A stretch of DNA of 63,924 nt, the filler included, from Hausera hauseri (taxonomy: Eukaryota), in the NCBI GenBank assembly GCA_046269625.1. It is 10 parts of 10 records of this genome, joined end to end, with 100 filler letters (N's around TTAATTAATTAA, not from the genome) between each part and the next. Parts side by side here need not be neighbours in the genome. Positions count along the whole stretch, not along the records: positions 4,578 to 17,336 come from JBJURY010016676.1; 9 more parts are not named here. One strand, written 5' to 3'. Positions 4,578 through 46,679 of this stretch are shown one piece after another. Numbering within the stretch: the first letter of the stretch is position 1; each line of letters starts with the position of its first letter. The position numbers and the translations under genes were made by a program. The notes beneath the pieces are model-generated. The model searched no databases and had not been told where the DNA came from. It was given only the letters and a program-made list of their open reading frames with translations.

Positions 4578-7000
4578 GAATCAGAAGTAACGACGTAAGA
4601 ATCGGTATAGTCCATCATGAAAACGCAGAAGCATAGAGAATAATAGGCGCTTGCCTTCTCGAATTAGATAAGTATAGAGAAGAATGTAACTACATGAAAC
4701 AAATCATAGAATTTGTACGAGGGCCAAATCACGAATTAAAAGTAGCTCTTGAGACATTAGATGAAATAATCTATGTTAAAGCAACAATATTTAAACAATT
4801 AAGGAAGTGGATAAACTTCTTACCTTCCATAGCAGAAGTAATAAATGAAAGACTAAAAGAATTCGCTATGGTTGAGCCTATAATGAGACATCAATTGGAA
4901 GAAATGTTACTAGGTATCGCTACAATGGAAGATGAAGCTAAATCGCGAATTAAATTTGAATCATTCCGAGAACTCGAATTTATGAGCAAGGATCAAGATC
5001 AAAAAACATTAAAAGAGATATACAGTATAATAGAAGAAAAGGAATTCTATAAAAAAGAAACAAGCTAAATGATCTTCAGCGAAGTTTACTAAATATCCGA
5101 TGGGAAGGGATACAGAACCTAATGCAGAAACCGTTGAAAGAAATTTCAGCACAAAAAATAGAAACATTAGAAGTTTGTAACTATCACCGGATTGCTCTAG
5201 CGCAAACACTACAATATTTACAGAATTTAAACGAATGGACACCAGGTTTCGACCTGCATTGCCACACCGAAGTAACGGAAATTAGAAAGGAACTTCAGCT
5301 GACGTCCGACGAAGCCAAGTTCATAGGCAAACAGATGGACTCAATAGATCCGGACGCCGAAGTATTAAATCAAGCACACAAATTAATTATATTATTAACA
5401 GAAATGGCGGAAGTTGACGAGGTAGTAGCCAAACGACTAATAAATCGAATACATTTGATAAAAGAAACCCGACTACGCTCCGAGAAAAGACAGGGCGAAT
5501 TAAATGAATTGGTAAGAGAAGTAGAGGTTTACAAGAACAAGTATTCCGTTAAGGAATCTGAAATCAACGACAAAATGGAATTTATACAGAGATGGCAAAA
5601 AGACAGAATCGCAGAAATAACTAGTTATCAAGAGAAAGCTCTGATACAACCAGAAGAAATATGCCGATTAATAACATTGATGCAACAAGCGTGCTGAAAC
5701 GGAGACGTATTTAGGATATCCGTAATGAAAACATTAAAACCGCAGATAAGAGAACTACGCGAACGAGTGATGTTGGACATACGGCACTAATGAACTACGA
5801 GTTACCTGACGCAGATAATGATGCCGAGTGGGATGAATATCTTTAAGGTTTAACCGAGCAAAGTCAAAGAACCCCAATACAAATTTATGAGTCACCTACT
5901 GGTGCCCAAAAGATGAAATTTGACGTGGAAATGTTACTTGACCTTGCTCTAGCTGTAAAGAAATTGAGCGGTGTATTGAAAATAAACATAAGTGAAGATA
6001 AGTTAATGAAATTGATTCCAACTTTGACTAAACCATCCAGTGAAAATACCGTATACAGCGCCATACCCAAGCTTTTAATAAGAGATTATGCTAAATTGCT
6101 AAGAGACAAACCAGAAGCGGAACTTAAAGTGAAGGTATTATCCGAAGTAATGGACGACGAGGAATTTGATTGTACTACCTATACTACCGTTGCGGATATA
6201 AAACAGCGGATAATGGATAAGAATGATAGGGAATGAGTTAGTTATCGACTATATTTCAGAGGCAGGATATTAAACAAGCTAGAATCCTTAATAGACGTAG
6301 GGATTATACCCCACGAAGAAAATCTAATAATAGCCATATTCACCAGTGAACAAACCAAAGACGAAGCCACGAGAAAAGCACATACAGACCATTGCATTGG
6401 ATAAATCATGGGAATTCAAGATGCCGCAATGTATTTCGAATACTTACAGACTGATGAGGACAAACCGCAATATGATAAGAATTTAGTCCCGCTGAGCGAA
6501 ACCGCACCACCAATAAAAGCGAAACGGCCGGTCGGAAAACCGAGAAAAATAAAAGAGATTGACTATAACGCAGATCTGATTAGAGAATTGAGACAACTAT
6601 CAGTACCAACCCCGAGTTTGGACAACGAAGAACTAATTGAGCTAATGAAATACCTAATTAGGATAGTCAATTATACTGGACTCCAAGGTGACGTATTAAC
6701 TGAGAAAGAAAGATTAATATATAATATAGCCCAAACAATGAAGACCTCGCGATTTAAACTATTTAAAAGTACCCTCCCTGACGAAACGGTAATCGATAGA
6801 ATTATGATTGACAATACGATGGAAGAATTAAGGAAAGTCTTGATATACTTTGCAGTCAGAACTAACCCTTTCCGGGAAAACGAAATTGATAAGGCAATTA
6901 AATTAGCTAGAAAAGCTGGAAAAGGGTACCTAAAGAAATTAAATGGACTAAATTATTCGAAAAAGAGGAGGAGATAATAGGAATAAATAACTTAGAAGAC
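4578..7000 (+). pseudogene. Gag-distal accessory region: long helical/coiled-coil segment, ubiquitin-like domain and AT-hook-like motif
   Basis: E/K/L-rich helical ORF fragments colinear with 31830-34748 (e.g. ELPDADNDAEWDEY vs RLPDAGNETEWDAY; LIPTLTKPSSENTVYS vs LIPTLTKLSSENTIYS); KRPVGKPRK at 6522-6548. Confidence 0.75.
6120..6340 (+). other. Ubiquitin-like (beta-grasp) domain, frameshifted
   Basis: LKVKV...TTVADIKQRI...YRLYFRGRILNKLESLIDVGI fits the ubiquitin pattern TV..LK..I...RLIF.GK.L.D...L.DYGI. Confidence 0.7.
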
Positions 7001-8900
7001 ATGATACAAAATATCTCTCCGAATAAAGGAAACAAATCCAGTTGGTTAATCAAGTTGCTGACGATAATGACGCTATTAAAGCAGTTAGGAACAGTTACTG
7101 TATATGATTGCGATAAGTTCAAAGTGGGTCAGAAATATTCCTTAATAAACCTAGAAACATGCGAAGATGCGAGACCTCACAAGCTCGAGACAGCAGAAAA
7201 AAGATATATTATATCAACAACGTGAATTAATCGCAATGAATACAACGGAATGCATGATATAGAGATCTCGCACGGGCATTTTTCAATAATCAAACCAACC
7301 ACACCATTGATTCCGATGAATATGGATAGACAGCACTGTTTAGGAGCCCGGTTAACTGGTAGAATGGTTTGTGAAAGTATGGAATTGGAAGCTCAAGAGA
7401 GAAAAATAATTAGAGCTTACAAAGTTGCAGTAAAAAAATTAAACATGCACTGTGTCGAAGGAGAATATGACATGAAAATGAATAGGAGGAGGAATAATAG
7501 TTGTAGATTTTTACGAAACCAAGTTAAGATCTCTAAAGGCAATGTTTCATAGCGTCACTAAACTAATTACCGAAAATCAAAAATGTCACATACAAGATGG
7601 CGCTTGTACGTTCCAAAGTTCAGTCGTGGTATGGAGCCCACTTTCTAAGAGAGATAGCAATTTCATCAAAATCAAAGAGTTAAAGTTTAATAAAACAATA
7701 GGAAAACGTTATACAAATAAATTACACACAAATATTAGATTGCGGGAAGATGTTATAGAACATTCCACACCGACGATATTGATATCGGACGCACACGGAT
7801 TGAAGTTTATTAGAAAAGCTTAGCTAACGTGTTGCGATTTAGTGATGTATACCACAAATTACGAAGCATTTTTCGTAGCAGAAACTGAAATCAACATGAA
7901 AACATATGACTTAAAAACACAAGATATTATCGGATTGAAGATTACTTCAAAAACCGAGACGACTACTTCTATTACAAAGGACAGACCGAAATAGTGGAGT
8001 TATATCACAAAATGATAACAAATAACTGCAGATTAGATACTGAAGTCATGGGAACCAAACTGGCCTTAATTTATGCCAACCCAGAATTGGCATCACCAAT
8101 TATATCAATGAAAAGTGTTTCCGGACAAGTTAGTGGGGAAATCCTATTAACCGACGAGTGCGAGAAAAGAGACGTACCGATTAACGTAGAAGAGAAAAGA
8201 TGCATGCAAAAATTACCGGTCATCTATGAAAATATGCCGAGAATAGCGATACCACTCACCAGAGTATTATTGGCGAACTCAGCCGAACCAACAATACTAA
8301 AGGAATGCAAAACGAGCTAAGGCGAAACCATGTTCCGACGTAGTGGAACCGACTGGATAAGTCTATCTAATGGAGGTGTTGCCACAGACCCTAGTAAGCT
8401 AAATGGGACAAATTTAATAAACGGATTATCAGAAGAGAAGTTTGAAGACACGGCCAATAAAGGAATTTATAGACCAAAGGACATAGAAATCTATAGGCAA
8501 TTCTTAGCTTTTCCACGGCAACGAACCTCTGAGCTAAATCGGGTCATGTCAATGGTCATGGACGACACCCGCTTTCAAGAAAAATGGAAATCATTACTTG
8601 GCGCTAACCGCTATCAAAGAGTAACTTTAGAAATATTGTATAAGATTTGGGGAAGATTTCTGATTTTCGGACAAGCTGCATCGGGATTCCTAGCCATATA
8701 CTTCTTAGTCTAATTAGTTAAAGCAGTAATCCAAGCTGTTATAAACGGATATGAAATATTCACATTAACAGGATTTCTCTGAAAAATTTTGACTGCAATT
8801 ATCACCCCCGTCGGGAAAATGCTCAAGGCCTACGAAAAAAACCGATGGAAAAATGACGTGGAACGCCAATTCTCAATAGACGTAAAAATAAGAAAATAGT
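7001..8900 (+). pseudogene. env: Env-like class III fusion glycoprotein, chuvirus G-like
   Basis: Signal peptide then VTVYDCD...YSL..LETC; NCRLDTEV...LIYANPE...GEILL..C...RCMQKLPV.Y...PLTRVL; GIY...FLAFP...LN; WGRFLIFGQAASGFLAIYFLV TM and a second hydrophobic stretch. Confidence 0.8.
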
Positions 8901-9429
8901 AACACAAAAGGATGATTCAGACGATGACGAGCCTAAGGGAGGAGAAGGGAATCCTAGAACAAAGATGCATAGGATGTACTCGGTGATAAACACACCAATA
9001 CCCATCCTGCCACTAACTACGACAATATATGAAGACTGTGACCAAAAATCAGTTGTGTCGTACAGGTCTGACATCTGCCGCAAACACATTGACTATGAAG
9101 ACCCTTATGAAAAGACGAAACAATATGGGGTACTACGAAAAAAGAATGTCACCAACTAAGGATTAATAGAAAACGATCACGGAATATTGTACTCAAAAAG
9201 GATACCGCGTCACATAGAATCAAAATTAACGATATGGGAGTACCCGAAACTGTGTTCAATTTCGGGTTCACTACCCCAGGAACCGCTCATTGACAGTCGC
9301 TTTACTGAAATAACAAATAACTACTTATACCCGAACGGAGAATTGAGACAACTAAGGCAAGTATCATTTTATCGCCAGAGATAACAATAAATGGACATAA
9401 AGCCTCTACCACAAAGCAGTCAAAGACAG

Positions 9430-12400
9430 CGTCAAATTGCCGTGGGACAGTATTAGAAGGAAGACCTTTGTCGAAAATACACATCGAAGATTGGGAAGTG
9501 TATGCATTAAACGACGCAGGATCAGAAAAGTCGTATATAAAATACGAATCGATACTGACCACACTGCGGAAGCAACTATGTCCACAATTATCATCAGATC
9601 CAGGTAGCATAGGAGCATTTGGGCAAGTATCAAAGCCGAAATATAATGAACCCCTACCATTTATATAATGGGCAAAACACTTCAACATGAATTTGCAGTA
9701 ATGGATCAATTAATAGACGATGTAGTATTAGGTTGTGATATATTGAAACGGATACCGGGCATGGTAATCGATGTACATGACGGAAAGTTAGTTGAGCTCG
9801 AACCAATAAAAGGGACAAAAGTAACAAAGGAAAGGAAATCATGCGAAGTATGGATTCTGGTAGACGAGGATATTCCGACCAGAACCAAAATGATAATTTT
9901 TGCACAGATTCGTTAAAACGAAGATCTGCCGGTGTATTTCGAGCCTCAAGAGAATATCGATCCAAACCTTATGTTTAGCAACATTCTATGTAGAGTAGTA
10001 ACGGGGCGAATATCTATCAGATTAGTGAACAGTGCACCAATCCCCGTAAGATCGCACGCTAACACTACTTTAGGTCACACTTGCAGAGTATCAGCAATAA
10101 CGATAGAAAAAAAGCCATATAAGTGCGCTGAGTTTCCACCTCACGTTGAAACCAAATTCTCTCCGGAGGCGTATTGCAAATTTTACGAATTACTATGCAA
10201 AAACCGTCCGATAATCGCACAGAATGAGGAAGATATATGCAGAGCAAAAGCCCTAAGATCAACAATCCCATTAAGGAAGAAACCCTGTTCGAATGATGAA
10301 ATCCATCTAGAAGAACAGAAAATGCCCAAGTGGTATCCACCTCCCCATTCATTGAGACCGGAAATAACTAAAGAGGTAGAGCGAATATTAAAGGTCGATA
10401 TAATTCGACCAAGTTACCGATCTTGGTACTCGCCTATGCTTATGGTCAAGAAGAAAGGAACTACAAAACATCCATTTTGTATAGATTACCGGGTATTAAG
10501 CACACTGATGATGAAAGACTCGTTCCCCCTACGGTCAGTAAAGGAGGCTTTAAACAGACTATAAGGGGCGAAATGGTTTACCACTCTTGACTTACAATAT
10601 GGATACTGGCAAGTAGAAATCAAAGAAGATCGATATAAGACAGCATTTAAAACACACGATTGCGTATATGAATTTAATGTTACGCCTTTCAGCATCACTA
10701 CAGAACCAGCTATTTTTACTATAATGATGAATAAGATGCTTATTGGACTTGATCATGCTTTCCCGTATTTGGATGATGTAATGATAGCATCGAAAACAGA
10801 AGAAGAACACTTAAAAGACATTGAGGATACACTCATGCGACTAGAACAAGCAGGATTGAAACTAAATTCAAAGAAATGTAAATGGGCACAGAACGCAATA
10901 TCGTACCTCCGACACATAATTGGAGAAGGAGGATCAAAATCGGATAAATTCCTGCTGGATAAAATATCCGATTGTATGGAACTGCAGAATCAAAAAGAGT
11001 TAAGGCATTGGTTGGGCCTATGTGGGTATTATGCTACTTATGTACCGGACAAATCGAAAATTAACGCACCACTATATTGCCTACTGAAAAAGGGAACTAA
11101 TTGGAAATGGAAGGAAATGGGGCAAAAATCATTCGATGAAATGAAGAAGATTTTCACGAGCGAACAAGTCCTAAGATACCGGATTTTAATCTACCATTCA
11201 TCATTAAAACAGATGCAAGTAAAGAAGGCATAGGATACGAATTAGCTCAAAAGCGAGAAGATGAAGAACTAAAACACCCAATGGACTATGGAGGACGCCC
11301 GTTAAAGAAAGCAGAAAAGAATTATTCGGTTACCGAATTAGAAACGTTAGCCGTGAAGGAAGCACTACGACACTTTAATATCTGTCTATGGGCAAAAGAT
11401 TATAATAGTGACCGACCACAAAGCAGTTACGACATTAAAAGGACGAGCTAATAACCCAACATGTAGATTAAACCGTTGGATCGAAGAAATCTCAAGATAT
11501 AACATTGAATTCCAATACAAACCAGGTAGTAAACACGTCGACGCCGACGCACTATCAAGGTTAAAGACAAAAACAAGTGGGATTACCACAATGCAGAAAA
11601 CGCAACTCGAACTAATAATTGAACGTCAAAGAAGCCTAACTCTGGATAAAACGATCAGGATCACCGCAGAGCAAGCTAAATATAAGGTTATTCAGCAAAT
11701 TGTTGAGTTCGCACAAAACGGCAAAATACCCAAAAAGACGACAACTGAAGAAGCATCTACAGAAACACGGACATAAATACCGCGCATCGAACCTAGATAA
11801 TATTCTATATTACGAACGAAAAGGAAGAAGACTAATAGTTATTCCAAAAGGATTACAAATCGAAGTACTCATGGCCGAGCATTGGCCAAGCATTTATATC
11901 GATGTAAAGAATTGGGTAGGCACTTGCGAAGTTTGCGCGACAAAGCAAAGGAAAACAAAAGGCTACGTAGCAGAATTAAAACCCATAAGCGTACCAGATA
12001 GGCCCATGCAAGCTATGTCTATGGATATAGTGGGACCTTGCCTAAAACGCACAAAAATAACAGATATATTCTAACTTGCGTGGATCGGTTAACGCATTTC
12101 GTCGAACTGGTGACACTATTGGATCAAAAGGCAGAAACTTTAGCCGACGCAATAATAAGGAAAATCATCTGCAGATACGGACCACCAGAACAAATCTTAA
12201 CGGATAGAGAAAAGAACTTCACAAGCGAATAATTCGCAAAAATTACCAAGATATTCGAAATCAAACGTTTAACCACTACCGCGTACCACCCTCAATGTAA
12301 TGGAATGGTCGAACAAATGAACGCAACAGCCATTCATATACTATCAACAGTAGTGGCCAAAGACCAAAAGGATTGGGACAAATTCCTAGAAGGGACACAG

Positions 12401-12870
12401 TTCGCAATCAATACGACCCCACATCCAGCAACAGGATTTACACCATTCTTTATGATGTATAGACGAGAGGCAATCTTACCCATGGATCTAGGTATGACAC
12501 CGTACGAAAAGAACATCGAGGATCTAGAGCAAAACTTTTCCGAAGTCTTGCAGATAAGATTGCAAGTGTTGGGAAGTTGCTAAAACATTATCACTCGAAT
12601 ACCAGGAACAATTTAAAAAAAAATATGATAAAAAGACTAAGCCCCATGATTGGGTTTATATACATTACCCAGTCGCGAAGAAAGGTACATCCTTGAAATT
12701 AACCCGTACCGGAAGAGGACCATATAAAATCGTCCGCACAACGCCAACCACGGTCTATGTTAATAAAAACGGTAAAGAGGAAGTCGTATCAATCCAAAGA
12801 GTAGTTAAAACAGATATAAGACCAGCTAAACACTACAATTTAAGACAGCGAAACGCCAAGACCTTGTCGA
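9430..12870 (+). pseudogene. pol: Gypsy pol (PR-RT-RNaseH-IN), frameshifted
   Basis: ALNDAGS (DTG in the sister copy at ~50000) and VLGCDIL; FCIDYR, LDLQYGYWQV, YLDDVMIAS; TDHKA, DADALSR; MDIVGP, TDR, YHPQCNGMVE, GPY. The IN zinc-finger His region carries a short deletion near 11880 relative to the copy at ~18020. Confidence 0.95.
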
Positions 12871-12879
12871 TAATCACTA

Positions 12880-14301
12880 GACCGGTATCATACGCACAGA
12901 TAATAGTAGACTTATCGTTGATTGCTGTCCTAACGCCTAAGTATAACGCACAATGGTGGGTCGATGAAACTTCGTTGAGCGATATATATGGAATCAAGAA
13001 AATCAAATTAAAACCTTCACCGCCAAGGGAGGGAACTTCTGAATACAAATCGGAACAAAAAGACGAAAAATTTTTATGAGCAATAAAATTAGATTATTTT
13101 TCGCCAGAAGCTCCATGTGTAGGGTTTAGGATACCAGGACCATATGAGGGGCAAATCCAGATACTATTCCATGACCTATTAAACCAAGCCGAGTCTGATT
13201 GTAAATTCGAGCCAGAAGACGATACAATTTGCTGCAACTTAAAGTACGGACACACTTACGCCCTCAGTTATCGTTTATATTTGTCAAACTGCAATAATGT
13301 GCACGCCGAAATAAACCTGAATTCACGTTTATTTATACCACGAACTTATGGAGACTACCTTAATATAGAGCTAGAAAACATGCTCCAGTCCACCGATCCA
13401 ATAAAACGGATGCTAGAAGAAAATATAGCTAATATAACGGAAAACCAAAAGGACAACTGTATCCAAATAAACACAAAAGGACGGTTAATTAAAGGACGAG
13501 TAAACACGATTCAATTTATGAGAGAGGACAAAGCAGCTCATAATCAACAGTACTGTCAAATTGACGCCGGAAGGCCGAATAAGTGTTGTAAGTTACCTCA
13601 AAGTTATAAATATAGAATTCGGTTAGACTTATATGAAGTTCGACCGAACCAGTCGAGTATTTACCTAGGAAGTTATCAATTGGAAAGCCCAATTGGGAAA
13701 ACTCCACCTGAGATGACAAAAAGCAAAATTACGACTACAAAAACGAATATGACCACTTCTACATCCACCAAAATCATCCAAACAAGTGGTTTGTCTCAGA
13801 AGAATCTGGAAACGATTCCTATAAAATATCGGACACAGCAACATAAAATAACATTCATTGTGGAAGAAGCACTTAATTATGACATAGAAATAAGCTGCCA
13901 AACATTACATAATAACCAGAAAGTAACACTGGCTAAAGGTACCTATCAAATCAAATGTACCTACTTGAAACCCAAAACAGACTACATAATACAAATAGGT
14001 GCAGAGAACAGACAAAGTAGAACGCTTACGGTACGGACCCTAAACGAGATTGTCTTAACGAAACCACTAACTAACAAGGAAACGGAAGACAAAACTACGA
14101 CTACCACTAAAACGAAAAACCTAACTAAATGGACAACTCTCAATAATATTGATTATTGGATCGTCAACGTTTGCTCTCATAACTTTTGTTGCGTTTTTCC
14201 GATTTATTACCAAAAACTGCTGTAATAAGCGTCATAAAATCACCGAGAGGGAATTAAGGGTAATGGTACCGCAGGATGGAATCAATTATGGAGTAACCTG
14301 A
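12880..14301 (+). pseudogene. Integrase-fused type I membrane protein (signal peptide, two Cys domains, Thr-rich stalk, FN3-like domain, TM, short tail)
   Basis: YAQIIVDLSLIAVL in frame with IN; PCVGFR...ICCNLKY; CIQI...YC...KCCKLP; TTTKTNMTTSTST; YLKPKTDYIIQIGAEN...TVRT; hydrophobic segment ~14140-14210; ends ...YGVT-TGA. Confidence 0.72.
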
Positions 14302-14399: not shown

Positions 14400-14980
14400 A
14401 ATGGTAAGTACAGATAGCCGCATTAGTATCGACGAGTATTTACGGAGACAAGTTACAGTGTTTATTTCGAACGCAAAATCTATCTATAGAAGGATAACTG
14501 AAGCATTGCAGGCAAAAACCTATGCCGAATTTTCGAAAACCAATGAAATTCCCAATGATCTAAAAGGTATTATAGAGGAAAATCGCACAGTCTTCCTTTA
14601 CGCAATGCGCGAAGGTAACCAAGATAAAGCATATTCCCTAAAGGAATTAATCCGAAACAGACTAGCCAAAATTCAAGACATACATCCATTTAGCCTACGG
14701 AGAAATATATTATAGAATAGAAAACCAACCCTGGAACTCCAACGAAGGACATCAATACCGGTTCAGTACATTTAAAATAAATGGAAGAGGTTTAGAACAT
14801 ATCAATTACAGCCTAGAATTTAGAGTAGCTGCCCTTCCTGTCAAACTTATGATCGCAGTGACCTCCAGAGAAGATTGTAACTTACAGTTGCCGCCCTTAG
14901 AATTTGAGCAAATTCCAACTGAAACAGAAAAGGATGAACATCACCAATCATATAGACTAGTCTAAGACGGTCGCAACGTA

Positions 14981-15470
14981 AGAATCATCGCGATAAACTG
15001 TGGCAGAGAAAATGATGGATATGGAATACCCATAGAAGTATCTATTAGGGAGAGAGACGGGATCGAAATATACTCTACAATCATAAATCCCCGAAAACGT
15101 GTCCAAGAATCGTATGCGGAAGTGACCGGTTTAAGGAAAAAGCAGCTCACAGGAGGAAAGGACATTAAGCAAGTCCGTTCAGAATTGGATCATTGCCTTT
15201 ACGGTTGTATGTTAACAGGATATAACGTGCAACGATCAATCCAGCTACTAGAAATATCCGATGCAAATATTGCCGGAATAAGGGAAATGGCCACTCACCC
15301 AATAATCCAAAAACAGATGGAGAGAACCGTGCAAGGAAGAAATCATGCACGACCAACCGCTCCAAAAGTCTTCTTTAAGTTAATGATCGAAGCAATGAGC
15401 AATGACTCGAGTAGAATTCAAAGACTTTTAACGGCTAGCCAACGCTCCAAATATTTGAAAGAAATTTATA
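14981..15470 (+). other. ISG20/REX4-like DEDDh 3'-5' exonuclease fold lacking its catalytic acidic residues
   Basis: RIIAINCG...EVSI...IYSTIINPRKRVQESYAEVTGL...L..G.DIKQVRSEL...L.G.MLTGY...IREMATHP...ASQRSKYLKEIY tracks the REX4 pattern VA.DCE...RVSI...YVKP...V.DYRT..SGI...ILVGH...D...RDT...H.SVEDA.A.M.LY. Confidence 0.65.
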
Positions 15471-16463
15471 AACCATTAAAGTGGGAACATGAATGGGTCC
15501 CTAGAAACCCCTTATACAATTTACGCAGTTCCCTGAAGCCCGAACAAATAGATACAAGATATAGAAGGAATATCAAACTCTACTCTCCGACCAGAACTGT
15601 CCAGTCGATGGGCAGGCATAGTCTTACGATCGCCGTGCTAAAACCTATGGAAGGACAAGAGGAAAATAAAACGGAATTACAAACGATCGAAAAAGGAAAC
15701 AAAATACTCAATAGAACGTCAAAGTCTCTAGAAGAAAACAAAGAAGAACTGAGGCCGGAAACAATAATAAAGAAGCAGAAATTAGAAGAAAAGCCCCAGT
15801 CCAATAAAACGCAATCTATTTACAACTACTTATTCAAGAAAAAAAGAAAAGACGAGAAGCTAAAAGATGAAAACCAACAAATCGAACCAAGTACCTCTCA
15901 GAAGGTCAAATCCGTAGAGAAAAAAATCAGTGAACCTATGATAACCGAAGTCAATGTCCTTTTAGGAAAAAAGACCGAAAGAAATGTCCACTGTAAAACA
16001 ACTCAGGACTCATCAAGAATGTTAATAACCACAGAATATTGAAGTAAGAAAATGATTAAGGAAGCTATGTTCTATATCAAAGTTGTCCCAGCAAGAGAAG
16101 TTTTCGAAAACACTTATGTATGGGAAAATCCTAAGTTGGGAAATTACATTACCTCCGTCTTCCGCTCAAAAAGAACGGGAAAGTTAATAGTACCAGTAGG
16201 TAAACAAATCCGGATATTACTAAAAAAAACAGTATCAACGATATCGAGTAGAAAGGAAGATCCCGGATTTAGACCAAGACTTTATGGTGGATTGGACCCT
16301 AGTGCAAGTAAGCTGCGATCAAAGAAAAAGTTCCATTAACCCTAAGCAGAAGGTAATTCATGGATACCTTTATCAAGACGGGGATGGTCTTATATTCGAG
16401 CCTATTGAATTAACAATCCAAGTTGACTTAGATCGAGATGATTGGGACAAGGAAGAAAATGAA

Positions 16464-16593
16464 TGCCGTGTGCGATGTCAACCTGAGACAAGGCTATGTG
16501 GTCTTGGATAACAAGATTTGCCGCCACAAATACTGTCGGGATTGTTTGGAGAAGTGGACACTCGACAATGGAAAAACAACATGTCCGGTATGT
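16464..16593 (+). other. C3HC4 RING finger (frameshift within the first Cys pair)
   Basis: C.VC...CRHKYCRDC...W...TCPVC; intact in the copy at 43706-43840. Confidence 0.88.
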
Positions 16594-16815
16594 CGAGCGG
16601 AGGCTACGGATCTGGAATATTATTCTGATGGAAGTTACACCTGAGTCGTTCGTATTAAGCCCTACCACAGTTATGATCTAGAGACGAACCCTTTAATAAG
16701 CCAAACCAACCGGATTCCCAAACTGATTTACGAGAGAGGATGGATCGATTAAGGCGACCAAGGACATTAGGCGCCACCTCTTCTGACGCAATAGGCTCCT
16801 TCGAGGATGCCGCTC

Positions 16816-16827
16816 AGGGAGCAGAGA
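16816..16827 (+). promoter_or_regulatory. Polypurine tract
   Basis: AGGGAGCAGAGA followed by TGT; equivalents at 23117-23128 and 43494-43483. Confidence 0.8.
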
Positions 16828-17336
16828 TGTAATAAACCAGATTATGATTGGTGAAAATATTTTTAATTCAGACCGTAATGATTGAAATGTAAATGTAAAT
16901 TTATTTATAGGTTATTTATGAAATTGTCGGCTCATTTTAGAATAGTACTAGAATATGCGATCGTTTATGACTAACAAATAATTGTAAAAATATTTATGAT
17001 TGAATTGTAATGCAAAAGAATGCAAATATATTTAGAAATATTGTAAATAAATTAATGGAGTTCCAGACTTGCTACTATATAAGCAGATTCTAAAACGACC
17101 AAATTGAACCAGATGTGAACAGGTTAACCAGTTGTTGACCTTAAAGTCAGAATCAAATCGAATTGTGCTAATTGACGATATTAGTTATATTCGGAATTAT
17201 TCGACTACTCCTGACGTGTTATTTCTTGTGTGGAATAATGAAGGTTATTTGTATTTTGTCGTTAATATTCCCTATATAGTTTGCATCGTCTCTTAAAGAT
17301 GATTTGACTACATTAAGGGTAAAATCAGAATTAATC
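16828..17336 (+). repeat. 3' LTR, truncated by the contig end
   Basis: TG start after the PPT, AT-rich, TATATAA box near 17076. Confidence 0.75.
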
Positions 17337-17436: not shown

Positions 17437-19080
17437 AAGAAAGCCGAAAAGAATTATTCCGTTACTGAATTAGAAACCCTAGCCGTTAAAGAAGCACTTC
17501 GGCATTTTAATGTTTACATATACGGACACAAAATTATAATTTTTACTGATCATAAAGCCGTCACGACTTTAAAAGGACCAGCAAATAATCCGACGTGTAG
17601 ACTTAACAGATGGATTGAAGAAATTTCTAGATACAATATCGAATTTCAGTATAAACCTGGAAACAAGCACGTAGATGCTGATGCACTGTCGAGGTTAAAA
17701 ATTAAGACGAGTACAATTACTGTTATGAAGAAAACTCAGCTCAAGGAAATAATAGATCGCCAACGTGCCATAACACTGGATAAAGCAATTAAAATCGCAG
17801 CAGAACGAAAAAGGATAAGGTTATTCAGCAGATTATAGAATTTACAAAAAGGGACATCATACCAAAAGGATGACAACTAAAGAAACAGTTACACCGGAAC
17901 GGGCATAAATACTGTCTTAAATGGCAAAGGCAATGAAGATATTTTATATTACGAACGAAATGGAAGAAAATTGATAGTTATTCCAAAAGGTTTACGAACC
18001 GAAGTTTTAATGGCAGAACACGACTCATATTTAGCAAGACACATGTCATGGAAAAAGACATAGGAAAGTATATAGAATAAATACTTTTGGCCCAGTATCT
18101 ATATTGATGTGAAGAACTGGGTAAATGCTTGTGAGGTATGTGCGACTAAACAGAAAAAGACGAAAAATTACATGGCGGAACTGAAACTAATCAACGTACC
18201 AGATAGACCCATGCAAGCCATGTCAATGAATATCGTAGGACCCATAAGAATAATAAATATATCTTACCCTGTATTGATCGTCTAACTCATTTTGTCGAAT
18301 TTGTAGCTTTGATTGACCAAAAGGCAGAAACTTTGGCGGAGGCTGTAGTGAGAAGAATTATTTGTAGATATGGACCTCCAGATCAAATATTAACAGATCG
18401 AGGAAGAAATTTCACAAGTGAACTATTTGAGAAAATTATTAAAATATTTGAGATTGAGCAGTTAACTACTACCGCATACCATCCTCAATGTAATGAAATG
18501 GTTGAACGGATGAACGCAACCGTCATACGCATATTATCCACAGTGGTAGACAAAGACCAAAAAATTGGGACGAATTTTTAGAAGGAACTCAATTTTCCAT
18601 CAATACTATACCACATCCAGCGACAGGATTTACACCGTTATTCATGATGTATGGACGTGAAGTTGTATTGCCCACAGATTTAGGAATGACACCATACACA
18701 GTAAACCCCGAAGAGTTAGAACAAAATTTTGCAGAAGTGCTACAGACACGACTACACAAATGTTGGAAAATTGCCAAAGAATTATCGCAAGAATATCAAG
18801 AACAGTTTAAAAGCAATATGATAAGAAAGCGAAGTTAGACGATTTAGAACAAGGAAATTTGGTTTATATTCATTACTCAGTAGCTAAGAAAGGTACGTCG
18901 TTAAAACTGACTCGTACAGACAGAGAACCGTATGAAGTTGCTAAAGTTACGTCAACTACGGTGCACATCAACAAAAATGGAAAAGAAATCATATCAGTAC
19001 AGAGAGTCGTTAAGACAGAAATACGGCCCAATAAACGTTACAACTTACGACAACCCGAGACAAAAACTTCTTCAATAATT
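17437..19080 (+). pseudogene. pol: RNaseH-integrase portion of pol
   Basis: NYSVTELETLAV, TDHKA, DADALSR, HDSYLARH...CEVC, LTDRGRNFTS, YHPQCN.MVER. Confidence 0.95.
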
Positions 19081-20473
19081 ACTAGACCGATTTCATACGT
19101 TCAGATAGTTTTAGTACTGTCGTTAATTGCTTCGTATATCCCAAAGGCACAAACTCAATGGTCGGACGACGAAACTACGCTAGAAGACGTATATGGAATC
19201 CGGAAGAGCGGATTAAAACGGAAAACCGTCGTAGTGGAAAAGAAGCCAACGCCCGAAGAAATCCAAAAACCAGAAGACAATTTTTGACAAACAATGAAGG
19301 CTCAATACTTTTCGCCAGATGCTGTGTGTCGGATTCAAACTCGGAGACCACATCACGATTTTGGGAAATTCCAAGTAGTGATGCATGATAAGGCAGGGAA
19401 CGAAATCAAAAACTGTGATTTCGAACTAGGAGATTATACACAATGCTGTGACGTAAACTACGGATGCACGTAAATCCTTAATTACCAATTAAATCTAGCA
19501 GACTCACCTGAAGTCTACGTAGAAGTAGACCCAGAGCTCCAATTAATTATGCCAACATTAGCCCGACGATTCGAAATAAAACTCGACGAAATGCTACAAT
19601 CCACCGACCAAAATATAAGGCGATTAAATAAAAATATCAAAGGGATCTCAGTTAATAATAAAAAACAATGCATCCAAGTAGATGCTCGAACGGGATTAAC
19701 TCTGAGTCAAGAAATTAGCATTGTTTTCGAAGCAGTAAACGGAAAACTCCGAAAATAGAATACTGCTCTGTTCATGCCGGTGTGCAACACCTGTGTTGTA
19801 AGCTACCAGTAAACCAAGAATTCAAAATAAAATTTGACTTATATGAAGTATGACCGAATAAACCGAGCAAGCACTTGCGAACGTATTATCCAGAAAATAA
19901 AGTATGGAGAATTTCAATAGAAACGACGACCAAAAGGCCGACCACTCGAGTTAGTACCATTATGAAAATCGTTACATCAAGCCGTGTACCCAAAAGAGAA
20001 TTAGAAAGTATACCTATTAAATATTCGGCACACCGATTTAAAATTGTGTTCTTCGTAGAAAAACTAAATTACGATATACTTATAAGCTGCCGAACAACGT
20101 ATAATAATCAAATAGTAACATTATTTAAGAAGACTTACCAGACAGAATTCAATTTGTTAAAACCACAATACGATTACATAGTACAAGTATATGCAGAAAA
20201 TAAGCAAAACCAAACAATTACATTGCGTACCTTAGATGAAATTCGTGCAGAATCGCATATATACGAAAACAGACGATGAAATCACAAGCACCAATGGGAT
20301 TAACCATTTTACCGATCGTGTCCACTTTTGTACTATCAACATTTTTTCTCATTATATTAATTGCGATTTTTCGGTTAGTTGCCAAAAATTGTTATTCTAA
20401 GCGTCCTAAAACTACAGAATGGGAATTAAGGGAATTGAAAACCCCTATCGGTCCATATGATAAAATAACCTGA
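19080..20473 (+). pseudogene. Integrase-fused type I membrane protein
   Basis: YVQIVLVLSLIASY signal; Cys domains; NLLKPQYDYIVQVYAEN...TLRT FN3-like; TM ILPIVSTFVLSTFFLIILIAIF; tail ends YDKIT-TGA. Confidence 0.75.
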
Positions 20474-20587
20474 CAACTACAAAGCTGGTTATTCTATCAT
20501 CAAATGAAGAATTGCTTTTATTTCTAGACCATCCCTTATTGTAAGAGTAATCCTTACTGTTTATTTTTCAGATTAAAGAGTATTCAC

Positions 20588-22950
20588 ATGGCCGAACGAT
20601 ATAGTATCGACAACCAACCAAAAGGAACCAGTCAAAAACGTCGATATAGTATCGACGAGTTTCTTCAGAAATATGCCGCCGTCTTCCTCCCAAATTCCAA
20701 GTCCATATATCGAGAAATTCATAACGAATTGCATGAGAAAACTTTTGTGAAGTACGATCAGATTAGTAGAATTCATAACAATCTAAAAGGTATTCTGGAA
20801 GAAAATAGAACTGTCTCTCTCTACGTCATGCGAGAAGACAAGGACGCCCGAGCATACACCCTCAAATATTTATATCCACCTGGAGGACAGTGAGATATAC
20901 TATCGATTCAAATATCAAGAATGGAACGCTAAAAACGAAAGGTAATACAGATTTAACATCCTTAGCCTACGTAGCGGAAATTTATAGCACTATGAATTAG
21001 AATTTCGAGTAGCCGCCCTTCCTGCAAAATTGATGTTCGAGGTGACTTGCCACGATTACCCCTATATCCAACTATCACCTTTGAAATTCTATCAACAACC
21101 GTCAGAAAAGCATTTGGACACATTCTTACAATCGTGTAGACTAGTGCAAGATGCCCGAAATACAAGAATCATAGCAACCAATTGTGGACAAGGGAATGAC
21201 GCGCAAAGGATTCCAATGGAAGTCTCAATGCGAGAAACAAGAGAAACAGAAGTATATTGTACGATTATTAGCCCGCGAAAACGCGTTCGCGAGACATACT
21301 ACGATACGACAGGAATTCGCAAAGAAACGCTTCCGAGAGGCAGAGACATCAAACTTGTCCAGGCAGAGTTAGAACACTGCTATATGGATATATCCTAGCT
21401 GGATATCGTATCGATAGGATTATCGAGCTCTTAGAGATACCCCGCTCAAGCATCGTAGGAACGCGTGAGATAGGGACACACCCAGTAGTCGCCGAACAGA
21501 CTAAACGAATATTGCGAGAAAGAAATTACCCTATGCCAAAAGTTATGGATGCCTATTTTAAGTTAATAGTTGACGCCATGAACAGCGAACGCGTTAAGAT
21601 TAGCAAATTGTTGACTGTAAGCCAACGTACCCAATACTTACGCGATATTTATGTAGCTTTAAAATTGGACCATGAGTGGACACCCAGTAATCCAGAACAA
21701 AATTTACGAAGTCCATCAAATCCGGACACTATAAGCAAAAAGTATCGGAAGCAGTATCGTTCGTATTCCCGTGCAGAGTCGTTGAAACTATGGGACAGGA
21801 CGATATCAAAATAACTATTCACAAATCAGATAGAATGAGTACCGATTTTCCCAGCACCAGTCGTAGTTCTCATACTAAATCTAATTTACCCATCAAGAGA
21901 CCAAGTCCAAAACAGGAATCAATAATAAAGGAAATAACCACAGTTGAGACCTTTAAGGTTCCACAAGTTCCCCAAAAAAGACAGAAAATTAAGATACAAA
22001 CTCCAGCAGTTAAAAGAAAAACATCCTTCTAGGAATACTTGTTTAGGAAGAAAAACAAAGGAACGAGCTCAACCCAAGTACAAGAAGACCGAACCAGTAA
22101 AAGGAACGAAGAACCCGAAAATTCAGAGATAGCAAGAAAAATTCCAACGACATCTGCAAATAACCTGACGACAATTCAAGTTCCAGAAAAACCCAAGAGA
22201 TCGATACAGAAATACAATGACCCAAAAGGCCGATTTATACAGCTATTCACGGAAATAAATTCGCTTAGGAAAATGAACTCTCAGGTAGATGTACATTTTA
22301 CAACAACTAAAGATTACCCAAAAATGCTAGTAACTACCGAATATTATAGTCACAGGAAAATCAAAGAAGCCATGTTTTTCGTAAAGATGACACAAGCAAG
22401 AGAAGTTTATGAAAACACCTACATTTGGGAAAACTCTAAAATAGGAAAGTATATCGCCCCCATCTTTTAGTCGAAAAGAAAAGGCAAGTTAACCGTACCA
22501 GTAGACAAACAAATAAAAACCTTGCTAAAGGAAAAATATCAGAGGTATAAAAATGATGGTTAAATTCCCGATTTAGATCGAGATACCACTGCTGATTGAA
22601 TATTAGTACCAGTAGTTTATGACCCTAGAAAAAGTTCCGTAAATCATAAGCAAGATAATCCATGGTTACCTATACCAAGATAAAGAGGGTCTCATATTCG
22701 AACCCATCGAACTCATAATAGGAGTAGATTTAGACAACGAAAAATGGGATAAAGAAGAAAATGAATTCCCAGTATGTGAAGCGAATCTCAGTCAAGGATA
22801 CGTCGTTCTAGACAACCGCGATTTCCGACATAAATATTGCCGAGATTGTTTGGAAAAATGGACTCTAGACAATGGAAAAACTACATGTCCCGTGTGTAGA
22901 GCCGAGGCGACCGAATTAAAATATTTTTCGAATGGTAGTTATACCCGTGT
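20588..22950 (+). pseudogene. ORF4 (inactive DEDDh exonuclease fold ~21165-21655; RING ~22765-22897)
   Basis: RIIATNCG...EVSM...IISPRKRV...TTGI; RHKYCRDCLEKW...TCPVC. Confidence 0.72.
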
Positions 22951-23128
22951 AGTCCGAAAAAACCCCATTACAGTTATGAATTGGAAACAAATCCCCGAGA
23001 AACTCAGCCAAATACGGACTCAGAAGTAAACTTATATCGACGGACAAATCTCCTAAGACAACCACGATATGGCGTCACCTCTCCTGATGCAGTGGGCACA
23101 TCCGATGATGCCGCTCAGGGAGGAGAAA

Positions 23129-23726
23129 CGTTGTAAAGATGTCCAATGTTGTAAGATGTCCAGAAATTGTAAATACTGTTATAAGCAGCAAATACTGTTA
23201 TTGTAAATAATTATTATTTTATGATATTTTCTCATTAATGTACAAACTTAGGAATTTGTACAAATATAAAGAAGGAAATTAGTAATAATTCGGTATATTT
23301 TTAGAATTTTCGGAAAAGGCGTTGAATTTATATTAATTTTTAAATCTGAAAAATCAGTTAAAAACTGTTTATAATTCTGAATAATCAGTCACGTACGCAG
23401 TACAGTCTTGTATATATACAGCAGAAAAAGAAATTAAAAATTGTTGAGAAGTCGAAAAGTATTAAGAAGTATTGAGTTGAGAAATTAAATTGATAATTGA
23501 AAACCTTTTGAAGCCAGATTTGCAAGTTGCTAAGGATCATTGAAGTTGGGAAGCAAATTCAGATTGAATTCGAGAAAACGACTGATTTGGTTCGATACTG
23601 TGGTGTATCCAGTAATTGTTTTGTTGTAAAATATACTTATTATTTTAAAATTCTTATATAATTTTTCATTGCCCCATAAGGGTGATTAGACTACACGAAG
23701 GTCTAAAATTCTACGGTAAATTAACA
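23129..23726 (+). repeat. 3' LTR (~600 bp)
   Basis: Follows PPT AGGGAGGAGAAA; starts CGTT (TGTT with a T>C change) and ends TTAACA; TATA-like box at ~23411. The right end is inferred. Confidence 0.65.
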
Positions 23727-31400: not shown

Positions 31401-31827
31401 GAATTAACGGACTAGTTGGCTTAATTATGGAGGAATGTCCGTGTATTCGTCCACAGTGGAAGATGCTATGCGATCGTCTCAACATGCACTCCATTCCGTC
31501 TAACGATATCAATTCTTGTTGTTGATACAGGAAGTAACTTTTCTCTCTCGTTTCCAATTTGTGCGGTCGGGCGTTTTCGCATACTTCCAGGTCCACTAAG
31601 GAGTATCTCTGTCCTAATTTAAACTTATCGCAATCGTAGACGGTTACCGCACTTATATGCTTTATTAGCATCATTAAGGTAAGCAAGCTAATTAGCCAAT
31701 TTGATTCACTTTTCCGACCTCCAACGTCTGACGTTGTCAGGTTACGTAACACATCGTCGAGTTTATTGTTATTTCGTTTGTTTTCTTCCTTGTCGAATAA
31801 TCGTGCCCAATTTACTTCGCAAGGCAT
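31401..31827 (-). pseudogene. env: Chuvirus-like glycoprotein N-terminus
   Basis: WLISLLTLMMLIKHISA|VTVYDCD...YSLVDLEVC...LYQQ...ECMLRRS..IFHCG..GHSSII. Confidence 0.8.
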
Positions 31828-32199
31828 TCTTCTTGCTGCTCTACGTGAAAAGCTTATAGTCCTATTGATTTTATTCTCTCGATTAGGATTTATTTTAATA
31901 GCTTAGTACAGCAATACTTTCTCAATTCTTCATTTGTGTTTTCTACCATTATTTTTTCTATTACTGACTCGTTGGTTAAGTTACTTTTTGATAGTTTGAA
32001 ACGTGAACTTCTCATCATTTTGGCTGCATCGAAAATTATCTTTTCTTTATCATCTAACACATCCCCTCGAAAACTAGAATAATTCACAATTCGTATTAAA
32101 TTTTTCATTAATTCGCTTAATTCCTCGTTATCTGGGCTAAGAGTCAAAATCGACATCTGTCTCAATTCTCTAATTAATTCTCCGTTGTAATCCAGTTCT

Positions 32200-32645
32200 T
32201 CTCGGACTTTCCTAGGTCTACCTACTGGGCGTTTCGGTCTTGGACCCTTAGTGGTTGTTTCACTTATTGGTATTAAATTTATGTCGTATTGTTCCTTATC
32301 GTCGTCTGTTTGTAAATATTCAAAATATAGTGTAGCGTCTCAGACTCCCATGATTTGTCCTACGCATTGTTCTGTTTTGGCTTTACGTGTAGCTTCTTCT
32401 TTTGTCTGTTCGTTAGCTATTACTACCACTATCCGATCTGTTTCGTCAGGAATAATCCCGACGTCTTTTAGTTGTTCTAGGTCATCGAGTATTTTACCTC
32501 TAAAATAAAATCTGTAGTTTAACTCGTTCGTTCCACCATTGTTTACTAGCCATTCTTTTACATCCTTTACGTAGGAATGTGTATTTAATTCGCATTCTTT
32601 TTCGTCCATCCATTCGGATGACACCATTACCTTTATCGTCACCGC
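32200..32645 (-). other. Ubiquitin-like domain followed by an AT-hook
   Basis: TIKVMV...SYVKDVKEWL...YRFYFRGKILDDLEQLKDVGI; PKRPVGRPRK at ~32240-32210. Confidence 0.75.
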
Positions 32646-35336
32646 AGGTTTAGCCCTCAAGATCTTAGCGTACTTCCTTATCAAAACACTTCGGCACCGT
32701 ACTATAAATCGTGTTTTCACTAGATAGTTTAGTTAAAGTTGGAATAAGTCGTCTTAATTTACTCCCAGTAATGTCTACGCTAATTAGCTCAATCAAATCC
32801 TTTTCAGTTAGCGCTGAATCTAGTAGCATCTCCACATTGAATCTCCTATCCTGCGGGCATGTTTCTATTTTGTTTAGTTGTACTGGAGTCATAGATTTTC
32901 CGGCAAGTATTTCGTCGAAGTATGCATCCCATTCGGTTTCGTTTCCGGCATCCGGAAGTCGATAGTCCACTAAAGCCGCATTGGCTCTTTGAATTTTTTC
33001 CCGAATTTTCTTTAATCTAGATTGTATTCCTTTCATTTGCGTAGTTCGGAAACCTACTCCATTTCCACAGGCATACTGAATCATTTTCAGTAATTCTCCC
33101 AATTCGTTCGGGCCAACCAGCCCTTTCTGGTGATAATCTGTCAGTTCAAGAATCACATGTTTAGCCATTTTTATACAAATTCTCCTTTAATCTTAATCTC
33201 GGATTTGGTAAACGCATATTTGTTTCGATAGACTTCAAGCTCTTTTGTTATTTTATCTAACCTTATTTCTCTTTATTTTGTCTTAATACGTGTTTCTTCT
33301 ACTTCCTGTATCTTGGGCGTTAATCGCCTGATCTGCTCATCACTAATTTCTGCCATTTCCACTAATAAATAGGCTCATTTAGGCTCATTTATAACCTTTG
33401 AATCAGGGTCCACTGCATCCGACAATTTCTTTACAAACTTGTGTTCTGAAAGCTAAAATGTGGGTCGTTTCCGATTTCTATCAACTTGGTATGAAGATTC
33501 TGGTCTGATCCGGCCATCCATTCTTGAGGTTTGTGTAAAAACCTTATTGCATCCGTTAACGTATTTCGATATCCTGGACAAATGTCCAATATTTCAATGT
33601 CTGGTACAGAAATTTCGTCGATTGGTTTTCCGGTTAAATTTTGAATCCCTTCTAGTCGGACAATCCTTAACTTTGAATTTACATCGTAAATCATATTCCG
33701 TTTCTCCATAAAGTTTGTCTCTTCGATCAATTTGTAGATTTCCTCCATCATCGACGCTTCCCGTTCTGTTTTCATAAATTTTAGTCGTCGTAGCGCTTCA
33801 AATTGAGTACGGATGTCTTTCTATCCGCAACGTGGCTAAATTGTGTGCGCTTTCCTCTAGTTGCTTCTTCACCGTTGGCTCGCTTTGCGAAAATTCTGTT
33901 TTACGATCTTCTACCAATTTAGTTAGTCACCTTACTAACTCGGACCATTCCGACAGTTGATTTGCAATTACAGGTTTTGCCATTATAGCTTTATCTAACA
34001 TCTTATAGGCACCTTTCAACTCATCGTCTGGTCCTTTTAGGTAATTCATAACTCGACCGATATAACTAAACTCATCCCTATACTCGTTTAATTCAACGAT
34101 ACAAGCCTTTATTGTATATTGAGTATCCTCGTAGTTTGGGAACATAATTTGATTTTTCATATCATAAATCTGTGCTCGTGCTTCATTTTCTATTTTAGTA
34201 CGACTCTCTAAATTCGTATATTGTCCAGGTACGGCGAACGTGAGTTTATTCATTTCCATTAAGGGAGGAATATCTACTAAGTCTATACCCAATATTTCTA
34301 AATCGATATTACTTCGATGGTTAACCGGTTTTCCCCTAAGTTGTTTGGCCATTGCGTATCGAATTTCGTCCATCGTACGCTCTAAATTACGAACTACTCT
34401 GTTCAATTTTGGGTTTTCCTCCAAAGTTGATAGTAGCGTTTGAGCCTTAGTAACTTTTACATCGACACTCTCGTCATTCTTGTTACATCCTTCGGAAAAT
34501 TCTACTCCGCTTTTAATCCATGATTCCATTTCCTGCTTCCATTTTAACAACGTTTCGGTTGATACCTCGTCGGGTTGTTGTACGTCAATTGCTTCCGCAA
34601 ACTTGCCTTCGCTATGCAGTTTGAAACTTTTATATCGCTTCTCAGCGAATTGTTGTTCTTCTCCAGATATGTCTACTTGTTTGCTAATTTGTTTAAGCTG
34701 TTTTAGGTCAGACTGTAATATTTCTGACTCATAACGTTTGTTTCTCAATTTCCTTAATTCATTGGCGTTTTTCCATGAATGTCGGACTTTTTACTTCTTG
34801 CAATCGAAATCATCAGTATTCGTTGTTTCTTCCTCACTAGTAGGAAGTGGACAAATCACGTTAATTTTATTGATTTCCTCTATAGACCCCGCTACTCCGA
34901 CAGGTGTGTGTGAACCAATTTCTGGTGTATTCAAACTATGGTCCGTGTCGCCTCCTACAACGACGTTCGGTTTTTCGATTTCTTTAATTTTCTTTCTAGT
35001 TATTTTGGAACGTGAACGACTTCTTCGTTTCGTTTTTAGAGAGGGGCTACGGTCTCTATTTTTCGTAATGTTAAGTAATAATGGCTCCATAAATTCTTTT
35101 TCTGTTGTATCAGGTGTATCATCCTCAGTAAGCTTAACTACCTTTTCAACTGTAAACTCAGGTTCTGCATCTACGTCGACTGCCGTCGATGTGCCTGGTT
35201 TATCAGATGGTTTATTGCTTGTCGGAACGCTCATTTTTCGTGTCATATCGATTCGTTTAGGTGCTATCGCATGTTCATATTCAGTTTCTGATTCTGCTGA
35301 ACCATAATATACTTCTAGTAATCTCAGCTTATCTCC

Positions 35337-35920
35337 TTATTCTCTTCTAGCCATCAGAATTTGTAGGTTAATGGTATCCGGTTGAGCATCTAGGAATTTT
35401 CTCAAATCCTGTATATCGATGATAGTGCCTATATCTCCACGAATTCCATACTTTGCTTCTAAATTCTCATTGATTCTAATCATACTAGTCTTATTTGGCT
35501 TAGTAAATGAGACGCTGCGTGGGTTTGGGTATGACCTTGAAATGTGTCCTTCTTTGCCACAAGTAAAACAAACCAAATTCTCATTTCTGCCGACTCTCTG
35601 TCGACCGTCTTCGTTCACTGGTGACTTAGATCTATTCGTACCCTTATTGTACTGATTTGGCAAACTTTGCACATTGTCGGCACTTCGTCTATTATCGTTA
35701 TTTCGGTTATCACCGTTTTGATTCGAGTAGTTCGAGCCTTTATAATTTCCTCTATTCCTATCCTAGTTAGGGTCTGATCTGTTCGTATTTGTATAATTAC
35801 TACTTCTATCATTTCTGTAACCGTCATTATTATTTCTATTCCCATAATTTCTGTTACCCGTAAATCGTCTGTCGTCTCTTCCACGATTATCATTGCGATT
35901 TCTATCGTTCCGGTAATTTC
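35337..35920 (-). pseudogene. gag: Gag C-terminus: R/D/N-rich low-complexity region and CCHC-type zinc knuckle
   Basis: CFTCGKEGHISRSY (last Cys changed to Tyr), preceded by NDNRGRDDRR-type repeats. Confidence 0.75.
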
Positions 35921-43482: not shown

Positions 43483-43649
43483 TTTCACCTCCCTGAGTTG
43501 CGAACTCGGATACATTGCCGATCTCAGTAAAGAATCCACGGACGTCCGGTCTTCTCAAAAGATTTAATCGCCTACGTAAGCTTGTTTCTGAATATATCCA
43601 TGGATTGGATTCTAGGAAATAACTAGTACTTGGCCTATCCGGTCAGATG

Positions 43650-46630: not shown

Positions 46631-46679
46631 TTTTCTTTTCTCCTTTGCTTCGATTCTGGGTTTCGTTATTAGACTGTGG

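Follow-up and report, generated by a model that had tools for sequence, protein, structure and literature searches.

Are the Gag region and the envelope glycoprotein of a decayed Ty3/gypsy retroelement made as one polyprotein, with a signal peptide inside the chain? A sequence-only reading of a 63,924-nucleotide stretch of Hausera hauseri DNA (NCBI GenBank assembly GCA_046269625.1), referred to here as the window, had claimed that they are. The window joins ten contigs with N-linkers between them, and four of these contigs each hold one decayed copy of a single Ty3/gypsy family (c2, c3, c5, and c7; 59-69% nucleotide identity). We find that this family is best described as a Burro-like long terminal repeat (LTR) element in which the end of Gag, a region X, a ubiquitin-like domain (UBL), a domain L, and a glycoprotein G likely share one frame, which probably runs on through Pol into a second surface protein, S. 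To this reading we assign a probability of about 0.72. The claim of a polyprotein with an internal signal is supported by breaks that the copies do not share, by continuous purifying selection, and by intact relatives that have the same order and a second signal.

The copies and the parts that they cover are as follows.

4578-17336 (+): contig of copy c2
17437-24097 (+): contig of copy c3, which covers RNase H to the RING finger and the 3' polypurine tract (17437..23140)
31401-35920 (-): contig of copy c5
42219-51449 (-): contig of copy c7, the most decayed, which covers the second half of G to the RING finger and the 3' polypurine tract (43470..51449)

All four copies are broken and contain no intact open reading frame (ORF); they are fossils. 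None of their contigs reaches the 5' end of the element. The visible part amounts to ~14 kb with ~3,800 codons of coding sequence; the capsid part, which in c5 falls past the contig end, is missing. Because the window joins ten contigs via N-linkers, Gag and Pol never occur on the same contig. Over the copies, Pfam matches follow the order zinc knuckle (c5), ubiquitin-like domain (c2, c5), Monjiviricetes fusion glycoprotein (c2, c5), RT, RNase H, integrase, and RING near the 3' end. With PF24664 upstream of the protease (PR) in c2 and the knuckle upstream of G in c5, a gB/chuvirus-type Env is located between gag and pol. Scans of viral and metagenome contigs did not find a related locus. The 109-nucleotide "repeats" in the window are the contig linkers.

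From the end of Gag to the end of G we distinguish the following features, where pN/pS is the ratio of nonsynonymous to synonymous differences.

35340..35920 (-): end of Gag in c5, an Arg/Asn-rich stretch and a CCHC-type zinc knuckle (35570-35544; Pfam zf-CCHC, 22 bits, cutoff 20.8)
35337..35339 (-): in-frame stop ~75 codons past the knuckle, in one copy (c5) only
31401..35336 (-): region X, UBL (~32600-32420), domain L, internal signal (31698-31648), and the start of G in c5, cut by the contig end
4637..6130 (+): region X in c2, broken, without a Pfam family (pN/pS 0.39-0.50 against c5)
6165..6340 (+): UBL in c2 (Pfam ubiquitin, E 1.8e-5; 7.4e-5 in c5)
6350..7042 (+): domain L and the n-region of the signal, conserved and probably helical, with a frame change at ~6918
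7043..7093 (+, c2) and 31698-31648 (-, c5): internal signal peptide 1, hydrophobic core of ~12 residues (Kyte-Doolittle 11-mer 2.24 in c2, 2.75 in c5)
7094..8896 (+): chuvirus/gB-type fusion glycoprotein G, ~600 codons, broken (Pfam Monjiviricetes_fusion, PF24664, E 5e-36 in c2)
8687-8743 and 8756-8812 (+): C-terminal hydrophobic stretches of G

First, we examined how the frame passes from L into G. In c5, as the sequence-only reading had stated, NPNRENK (31890-31870) and WARLFDKEE (31809-31783) open into the hydrophobic stretch (31698-31663) and VTVYDC (31647-31630); a single open frame (31902-31402) holds all four. It had also correctly placed the homologous VPKEIKWTKLFEKEE of c2 (6926-6970) out of frame with the upstream ORF 6405-6977, the change being at ~6918. 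Copy c5 also shifts frame, at ~31916, and then stops at 31905-31903. Both breaks are directly upstream of NPNRENK, and the shift of c5 is 80 nucleotides upstream of the position homologous to the c2 shift. Since neither copy alone reads through, continuity from UBL to G rests on c2 and c5 jointly. A frame-aware pairwise comparison of the two over 867 codons yielded 10 stops and 9 frame changes, with 0 of these 19 breaks shared, and under all four alternative penalty sets (4/4) no stop was common to both. The same method does recover shared stops at true ORF ends (14299 and 16830). The claim that the breaks are copy-specific thus stands from X to the start of G; it does not stand at the junction of G with Pol or at the end of S.

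Purifying selection is evident along the same interval. Differences between c2 and c5 are in excess at third positions in 15 of 15 bins, and pN/pS is 0.22-0.52 in each of the eight segments from X to G. Since both signals persist throughout, there is no non-coding spacer ahead of G. Even the 26-codon interval that separates the two frame changes has a pN/pS of 0.35; of its 78 nucleotides, 45 align in register, compared with 19-26 when the register is shifted. By chance, 1.2 such close pairs of copy-specific shifts would be expected, and the likelihood ratio at this junction, roughly estimated, is 5-21 fold in favor of continuity. A programmed -1 frameshift at 6918 was rejected: c2 and c5 share no slippery heptamer at this junction, and no stable downstream structure was found there. 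We consider it highly probable that L and G are continuous.

The stretch at 7043-7093 (31698-31648 in c5) is the sole marked hydrophobic stretch before G that is conserved in both copies. The PF24664 match starts on it, at profile position 6. Because the Pfam model of the glycoprotein begins there, this stretch is the counterpart of the signal found at the N-terminus of viral G proteins that stand alone. From the small-residue rule for signal peptidase sites, cleavage is predicted directly before VTVYDC. Word-indexed protein searches with G returned nothing, comparison of its sequence with solved structures gave no match, and an Atlas search with the junction piece gave no usable match. For pieces of the family, single-sequence folds were poor (mean predicted local distance difference test score, pLDDT, of 40 and 48).

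Intact natural relatives provide the strongest backing for this architecture. When the second half of G served as a HMMER query, 383 matches came back, of which the best 150 were considered; these are mostly stand-alone proteins of ~650 residues. The domain scan covered the 16 longest or best-placed matches and 3 cluster members, and all relatives were read as protein. Among the matches listed, the closest relatives are long chains. The closest of these, P0051, is one chain of 2,627 amino acids with 33% identity in G and the order zinc knuckle, spacer, internal signal, G, transmembrane segment (TM), PR, reverse transcriptase (RT), RNase H (RH), integrase (IN), second signal, ectodomain, TM. 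This protein (HBK71150.1) is deposited as a Flavobacteriaceae protein; it probably comes from a contaminated bin and is presumably eukaryotic. In 8 of the 9 top matches G continues into the protease, while the ninth stops within the anchor region of G. The start of G could be placed in 33 of the matches listed; 11 of these have at least 100 residues upstream, and 5 of the 11 have a zinc knuckle. A signal motif like that at 7043-7093 sits inside 11 natural chains. In P0051, P0056, P0131, and P0201, the integrase is followed by another signal-like stretch and a TM. Other peculiarities of the relatives are several tandem aspartic-protease domains in P0056, P0058, P0062, and P0201 (up to six Pfam stretches in P0201), protease motifs also after the integrase in P0056 and P0201, and two immunoglobulin domains fused before a chuvirus-type glycoprotein in P0169.

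Upstream of the signal, the Pfam scores of UBL fall slightly below the curated cutoff in both c2 and c5, and neither copy has a C-terminal di-glycine. In pestiviruses, ubiquitin serves as a deubiquitinase cleavage signal; since both UBL copies lack the di-glycine, we rejected this reading for the present domain. Domain L (6350-6836) has 64% amino-acid identity between c2 and c5 at a pN/pS of 0.22. It occupies the slot of a Bcl-2-like domain seen in Burro and directly before the internal signal in relatives P0052, P0059, and P0067. In these three proteins the internal signal could act as the membrane anchor of the Bcl-2-like domain after cleavage. An assignment of L itself to Bcl-2, prompted by its position and by the relatives, was not supported by five tests with shallow profiles, which gave no match. 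The pieces scanned also gave no Pfam match to MATH, BIR, ankyrin, or dUTPase-like domains.

Downstream of G, the family has the following features.

8897..9500 (+): spacer from G to the protease, with a G-frame stop near its start in c2 and c7
8922..8945 (+, c2) and 50606-50583 (-, c7): internal copy of the 3' polypurine tract, a candidate central polypurine tract
9325-9345 (+, c2) and 50196-50176 (-, c7): LYP (YPxL-like) motif directly before PR
9507..12850 (+): Pol, broken, with PR motif (9507), insert, RT (YLDD, 10766), RNase H, and integrase with a GPY-like tail (12717)
12880..14301 (+): internal signal 2 (12900-12932), S with fibronectin type III (FN3)-like domain(s), TM (14143-14200), and short tail
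14401..16832 (+): ORF Y, separate, ~800 codons, ending in a RING finger (~16490-16600; zf-RING_2, E 1e-7)
16802..16830 (+): 3' polypurine tract, then TGT, where the 3' LTR presumably begins

Within Pol, the order PR-RT-RH-IN follows from Pfam RVT_1, RT_RNaseH, Integrase_H2C2, and rve in sequence, with PR identified by motif only; the insert between PR and RT has ~180 codons. In a search with RT, all 50 matches listed have a gypsy-type RNase H (best identity among them 41%); these are generic gypsy proteins only, and none of those listed contains a glycoprotein domain. The YPxL-like motif before PR also occurs in 4 of 12 relatives (P0051, P0057, P0058, P0131) against a background of 0.045 per 90 residues, a comparison made post hoc. 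We take the motif at 9325-9345 to resemble ALIX-binding budding motifs.

The integrase was also said to run into a second signal peptide, and this hydrophobic stretch is indeed reached without a break at 12563-13077 in c2 and 18809-19285 in c3; a similar second signal is found in c7. S ends at the same stop in three copies (14299-14301). That IN and S form one continuous frame is very probable. A profile built from the post-integrase domains of three relatives, picked after their likeness to S had been noticed, has its best match of all six frames in S, at 13863 (E 4.4e-4); the runner-up has E 0.32. Foldseek rows for S are mostly FN3-type, each with E 1e-3 or worse, and pairwise tests of S and the upstream regions against the relatives were not significant (best z 2.9). 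Three weak concordant leads suggest that S has FN3-like domain(s). ORF Y has an ATG at the corresponding place in three copies (c2, c3, c7) and a shared stop at 16830, which coincides with the LTR start; outside the RING finger no family was found for it.

Several observations weigh against a single internal-signal polyprotein. The core of signal 1 is short and contains lysines, and G ends in two hydrophobic stretches. For Pol to be cytosolic, only one of these stretches may span the membrane; paired terminal hydrophobic stretches are also present in relatives that have Pol in the same chain as G. The relatives are not close, with 33% identity in G, and the upstream regions have no significant match to them. 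Junctions L-G and G-Pol are covered by two copies only, and Gag-X, including the Gag stop, by c5 alone. At L-G, the net offset from L to G is -1 in c2 as well as in c5, and with 2 of the 4 penalty sets the 6918 event resolves into one shift common to both copies and one of c5. The change at 6918 may also be an assembly error, though the reading would stand. Finally, the rough likelihood ratio at G-Pol is, taken alone, 6-8 fold against continuity.

This last junction bears the alternative that survives best. Both covering copies have stops in the G frame near 8870-8900 (c2 at 8897-8902, c7 at ~50676), and frame changes are needed to reach the next conserved stretch. Gag-X-UBL-L-G may then be one ORF ending after G, with Pol-S as a second ORF that is accessed by a -1 frameshift or from its own message; this would be the retroviral gag/pol switch displaced to downstream of env. 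That the stops of c2 and c7 lie within ~10 codons of each other, and that in both copies the SDDDE frame is entered only through a -1 change, agrees with this proposal as does the likelihood ratio, and the sole slippery heptamer common to the two copies in 8076-9700 lies at 8836-8842. However, the -1 frame shuts within five codons of this heptamer in both copies, and folding z values of +1.08 and +0.36 do not indicate a stable structure. We rejected a programmed -1 frameshift at 8836. In addition, c7, with ~4 shifts per kb, is heavily decayed, the conserved DNA block at the junction is accounted for by the polypurine tract copy, and 8 of the 9 closest relatives among the matches listed read from G into the protease. 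A "shared stop" at 8780/50787 proved to be an alignment artefact, as c7 lacks that stretch. With a prior of 0.89 from the relatives, the posterior for continuity is 0.50-0.58. We lean slightly toward a continuous G-Pol frame and regard two ORFs as rather unlikely.

Even with a continuous frame, most G could be made from a spliced or subgenomic message, starting at an internal methionine 80-130 codons before the signal and giving an Env with a long leader. Copies c2 and c5 do share methionine codons at 6645, 6738, and 6804 as well as several AG sites with 7-9 pyrimidines in the preceding 12 nucleotides, and four relatives have been called as proteins beginning 129-144 residues before G. On the other hand, the AG sites are weak, the methionines lie inside a conserved domain, and in five relatives the zinc knuckle is in the same chain. 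Within the 80 codons before the signal at 7043-7093 there is no methionine shared by c2 and c5, the nearest being 6804. We judge such a leader unlikely.

The stop at 35337 raises a similar question at the other end of this chain. The sequence-only reading had noted that this stop (35339-35337) is in frame with the next ORF, and this is correct: in 702 codons this frame has 4 stops, compared with 56 and 87 for the other two frames. A stop ~75 codons past the knuckle is a plausible end of Gag, and X onward might be made by read-through or separately. Yet the chance that decay by itself would place a stop within those 150 codons is 65%, and a further stop (35763) lies upstream of the knuckle. Near Gag-X, c5 has 3 stops in 600 codons where its decay rate predicts 4.2, and because of this agreement the stop at 35337 fits decay. 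The downstream structure is not stable (folding z -0.37), a low-confidence model (mean pLDDT 48) would place the stop in a hairpin turn, and a wide search of the region reached a best Z of only 3.3. TAA is the least leaky stop, which counts against read-through at 35337; read-through was rejected, there being neither a shared signal nor a stable structure. The stop is probably a product of decay, a true Gag end here seems distinctly improbable, and Gag and X are probably continuous. The last alternative, that G is a separate overlapping ORF at a -1 offset from the upstream ORF, would account for the identical net offset of c2 and c5 and is formally possible under the two penalty sets that split the event, but it requires two compensating events in one copy against a 5-21 fold ratio, the copies share no slippery site, and the relatives are continuous, making it very improbable.

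Similar arrangements exist in other animals; the type of element points to an invertebrate as the probable host of our family. Nematode NERVs (Sacco et al. 2022) are said to be metaviruses with a captured RNA-virus glycoprotein, env before pol, and a continuous gag-env-pro-pol ORF. Burro and GYPSM1 (Arkhipova and Yushenova 2019, PMC6431247) are giant gypsy-like planarian elements in which env sits between gag and pol without a change of frame, and Burro has this gag-env-pol order in one ORF of 4,873 amino acids. Burro-like elements are expected to exceed 30 kb. Like Burro, our family has Gag-CCHC, a long insert, a ubiquitin/SUMO-like domain, a domain slot, a mononegavirus-like Env in frame, PR, an insert, RT, RH, and IN, together with accessory ORFs and ubiquitin-system cargo (PMC6431247). 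In our family, the in-frame position of Env relative to the upstream region would follow from two broken copies (0 of 19 breaks shared). Since this layout has already been published, continuity by itself is an ordinary finding, and the window adds another decayed family. This family is smaller than Burro (4,873-5,140 amino acids, PMC6431247; here ~3,800 visible codons, to which the missing capsid part must be added), MATH, BIR, and ankyrin matches are absent from the pieces scanned, and domain L was not matched to Bcl-2. The second surface protein, the central polypurine tract, and the downstream RING ORF are features of our family that the accessible text on Burro does not mention (PMC6431247).

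A second group, the GAG-ENV-POL "ancient errantiviruses" with HSV/gB-type ENV (HSV, herpes simplex virus), is described from nematodes, bryozoans, and flatworms in the accessible part of Chary and Hayashi (PMC13524379). These elements share with our family a Ty3/gypsy Pol and a gB/chuvirus-type envelope between gag and pol, and their ectodomains are flanked by two TM segments, consistent with an internal signal; that part of the report does not discuss a single ORF, UBL, S, or RING for them (PMC13524379). The Atlas belpaovirus also has a single Gag-Pol-Env polyprotein of 2,828 amino acids in the accessible text, with glycoproteins after the integrase, but is a BEL/Pao element with a class II phlebovirus-like envelope and env in last position (PMC9094657).

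How could such a chain be made and sorted? Flaviviridae polyproteins contain internal signals and are cleaved by host and viral proteases; the likeness to our family lies in this way of working only, without homology or kinship. From the features described above, we infer that a ribosome would make Gag-X-UBL-L in the cytosol, after which the stretch at 7043-7093 would work as an internal signal and thread G into the endoplasmic reticulum. Signal peptidase would cut before VTVYDC; the upstream product would stay tethered through what remains of the signal, and G would be in the lumen. The membrane anchor of G would halt transfer and keep PR-RT-RH-IN cytosolic, where PR could free the enzymes. 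Signal 2 after the integrase would then send the FN3-like S into the lumen, the TM of S and the shared stop would close the frame, and Y-RING would be a separate ORF.

Two additions to the published layout may be of wider interest. A signal-led surface protein after the integrase, present in three copies and four intact relatives, suggests separate fusion and attachment proteins. The other addition is the internal polypurine tract (PPT). A PPT followed by an LTR starting with TG is present in three copies. A profile of these three 3' tracts alone finds its best site in c2 and in c7 at the internal copy, which none of 300 shuffles matched in either case. When c2 and c7 are aligned, the block at 8917-8945 is among the three best-conserved 29-nucleotide windows; protein identity around it is 33-39%, and the block is kept at the DNA level despite near-saturated synonymous sites. 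Explanations of this block as a splice acceptor or as overlapping frames were dropped, since the PPT match explains it better. Between the internal tract and the 3' tract are 7.1-7.9 kb, and at least 6.1 kb precede the internal tract. From this roughly central place in the element it may prime a second plus strand, in a genome of 14 kb or more. Central PPTs are documented for HIV, Ty1, and EVADE in the accessible text of PMC7197481. Literature searches found neither a post-integrase FN3-like protein nor a central PPT in such elements, although both may be covered by Sacco 2022, by Grohme 2018, or in the figures and the bulk of the supplement rows.

Taken further, the family may tentatively represent a lineage of one-chain gypsy viruses with capsid, UBL, a class III fusogen, enzymes, and an FN3-type attachment or decoy-receptor protein, with two internal signals and a lentivirus-like central PPT. 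If true, a retroelement would have a two-glycoprotein entry system (fusion and attachment) and would use a central PPT for copying a long genome.

The remaining contigs contain other mobile elements. A gypsy element of another kind occupies 610-4477 on the minus strand; here too the integrase frame, if followed beyond its stops, arrives at a signal-like stretch and an ORF of 225 amino acids that is rich in Cys and has no Pfam match. An ordinary decayed gypsy element without env occupies 26112-30702 (+). RING-finger ORFs and other fragments occur at 52890-53327, 55815-56153, and 57543-59698 (-); some fragments among 52890-59698 (-) have no Pfam match, and their motifs resemble those of a Polinton-type DNA polymerase. 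Finally, a self-inverted stretch of ~290 nucleotides with 67% identity is located at 55230-55518.

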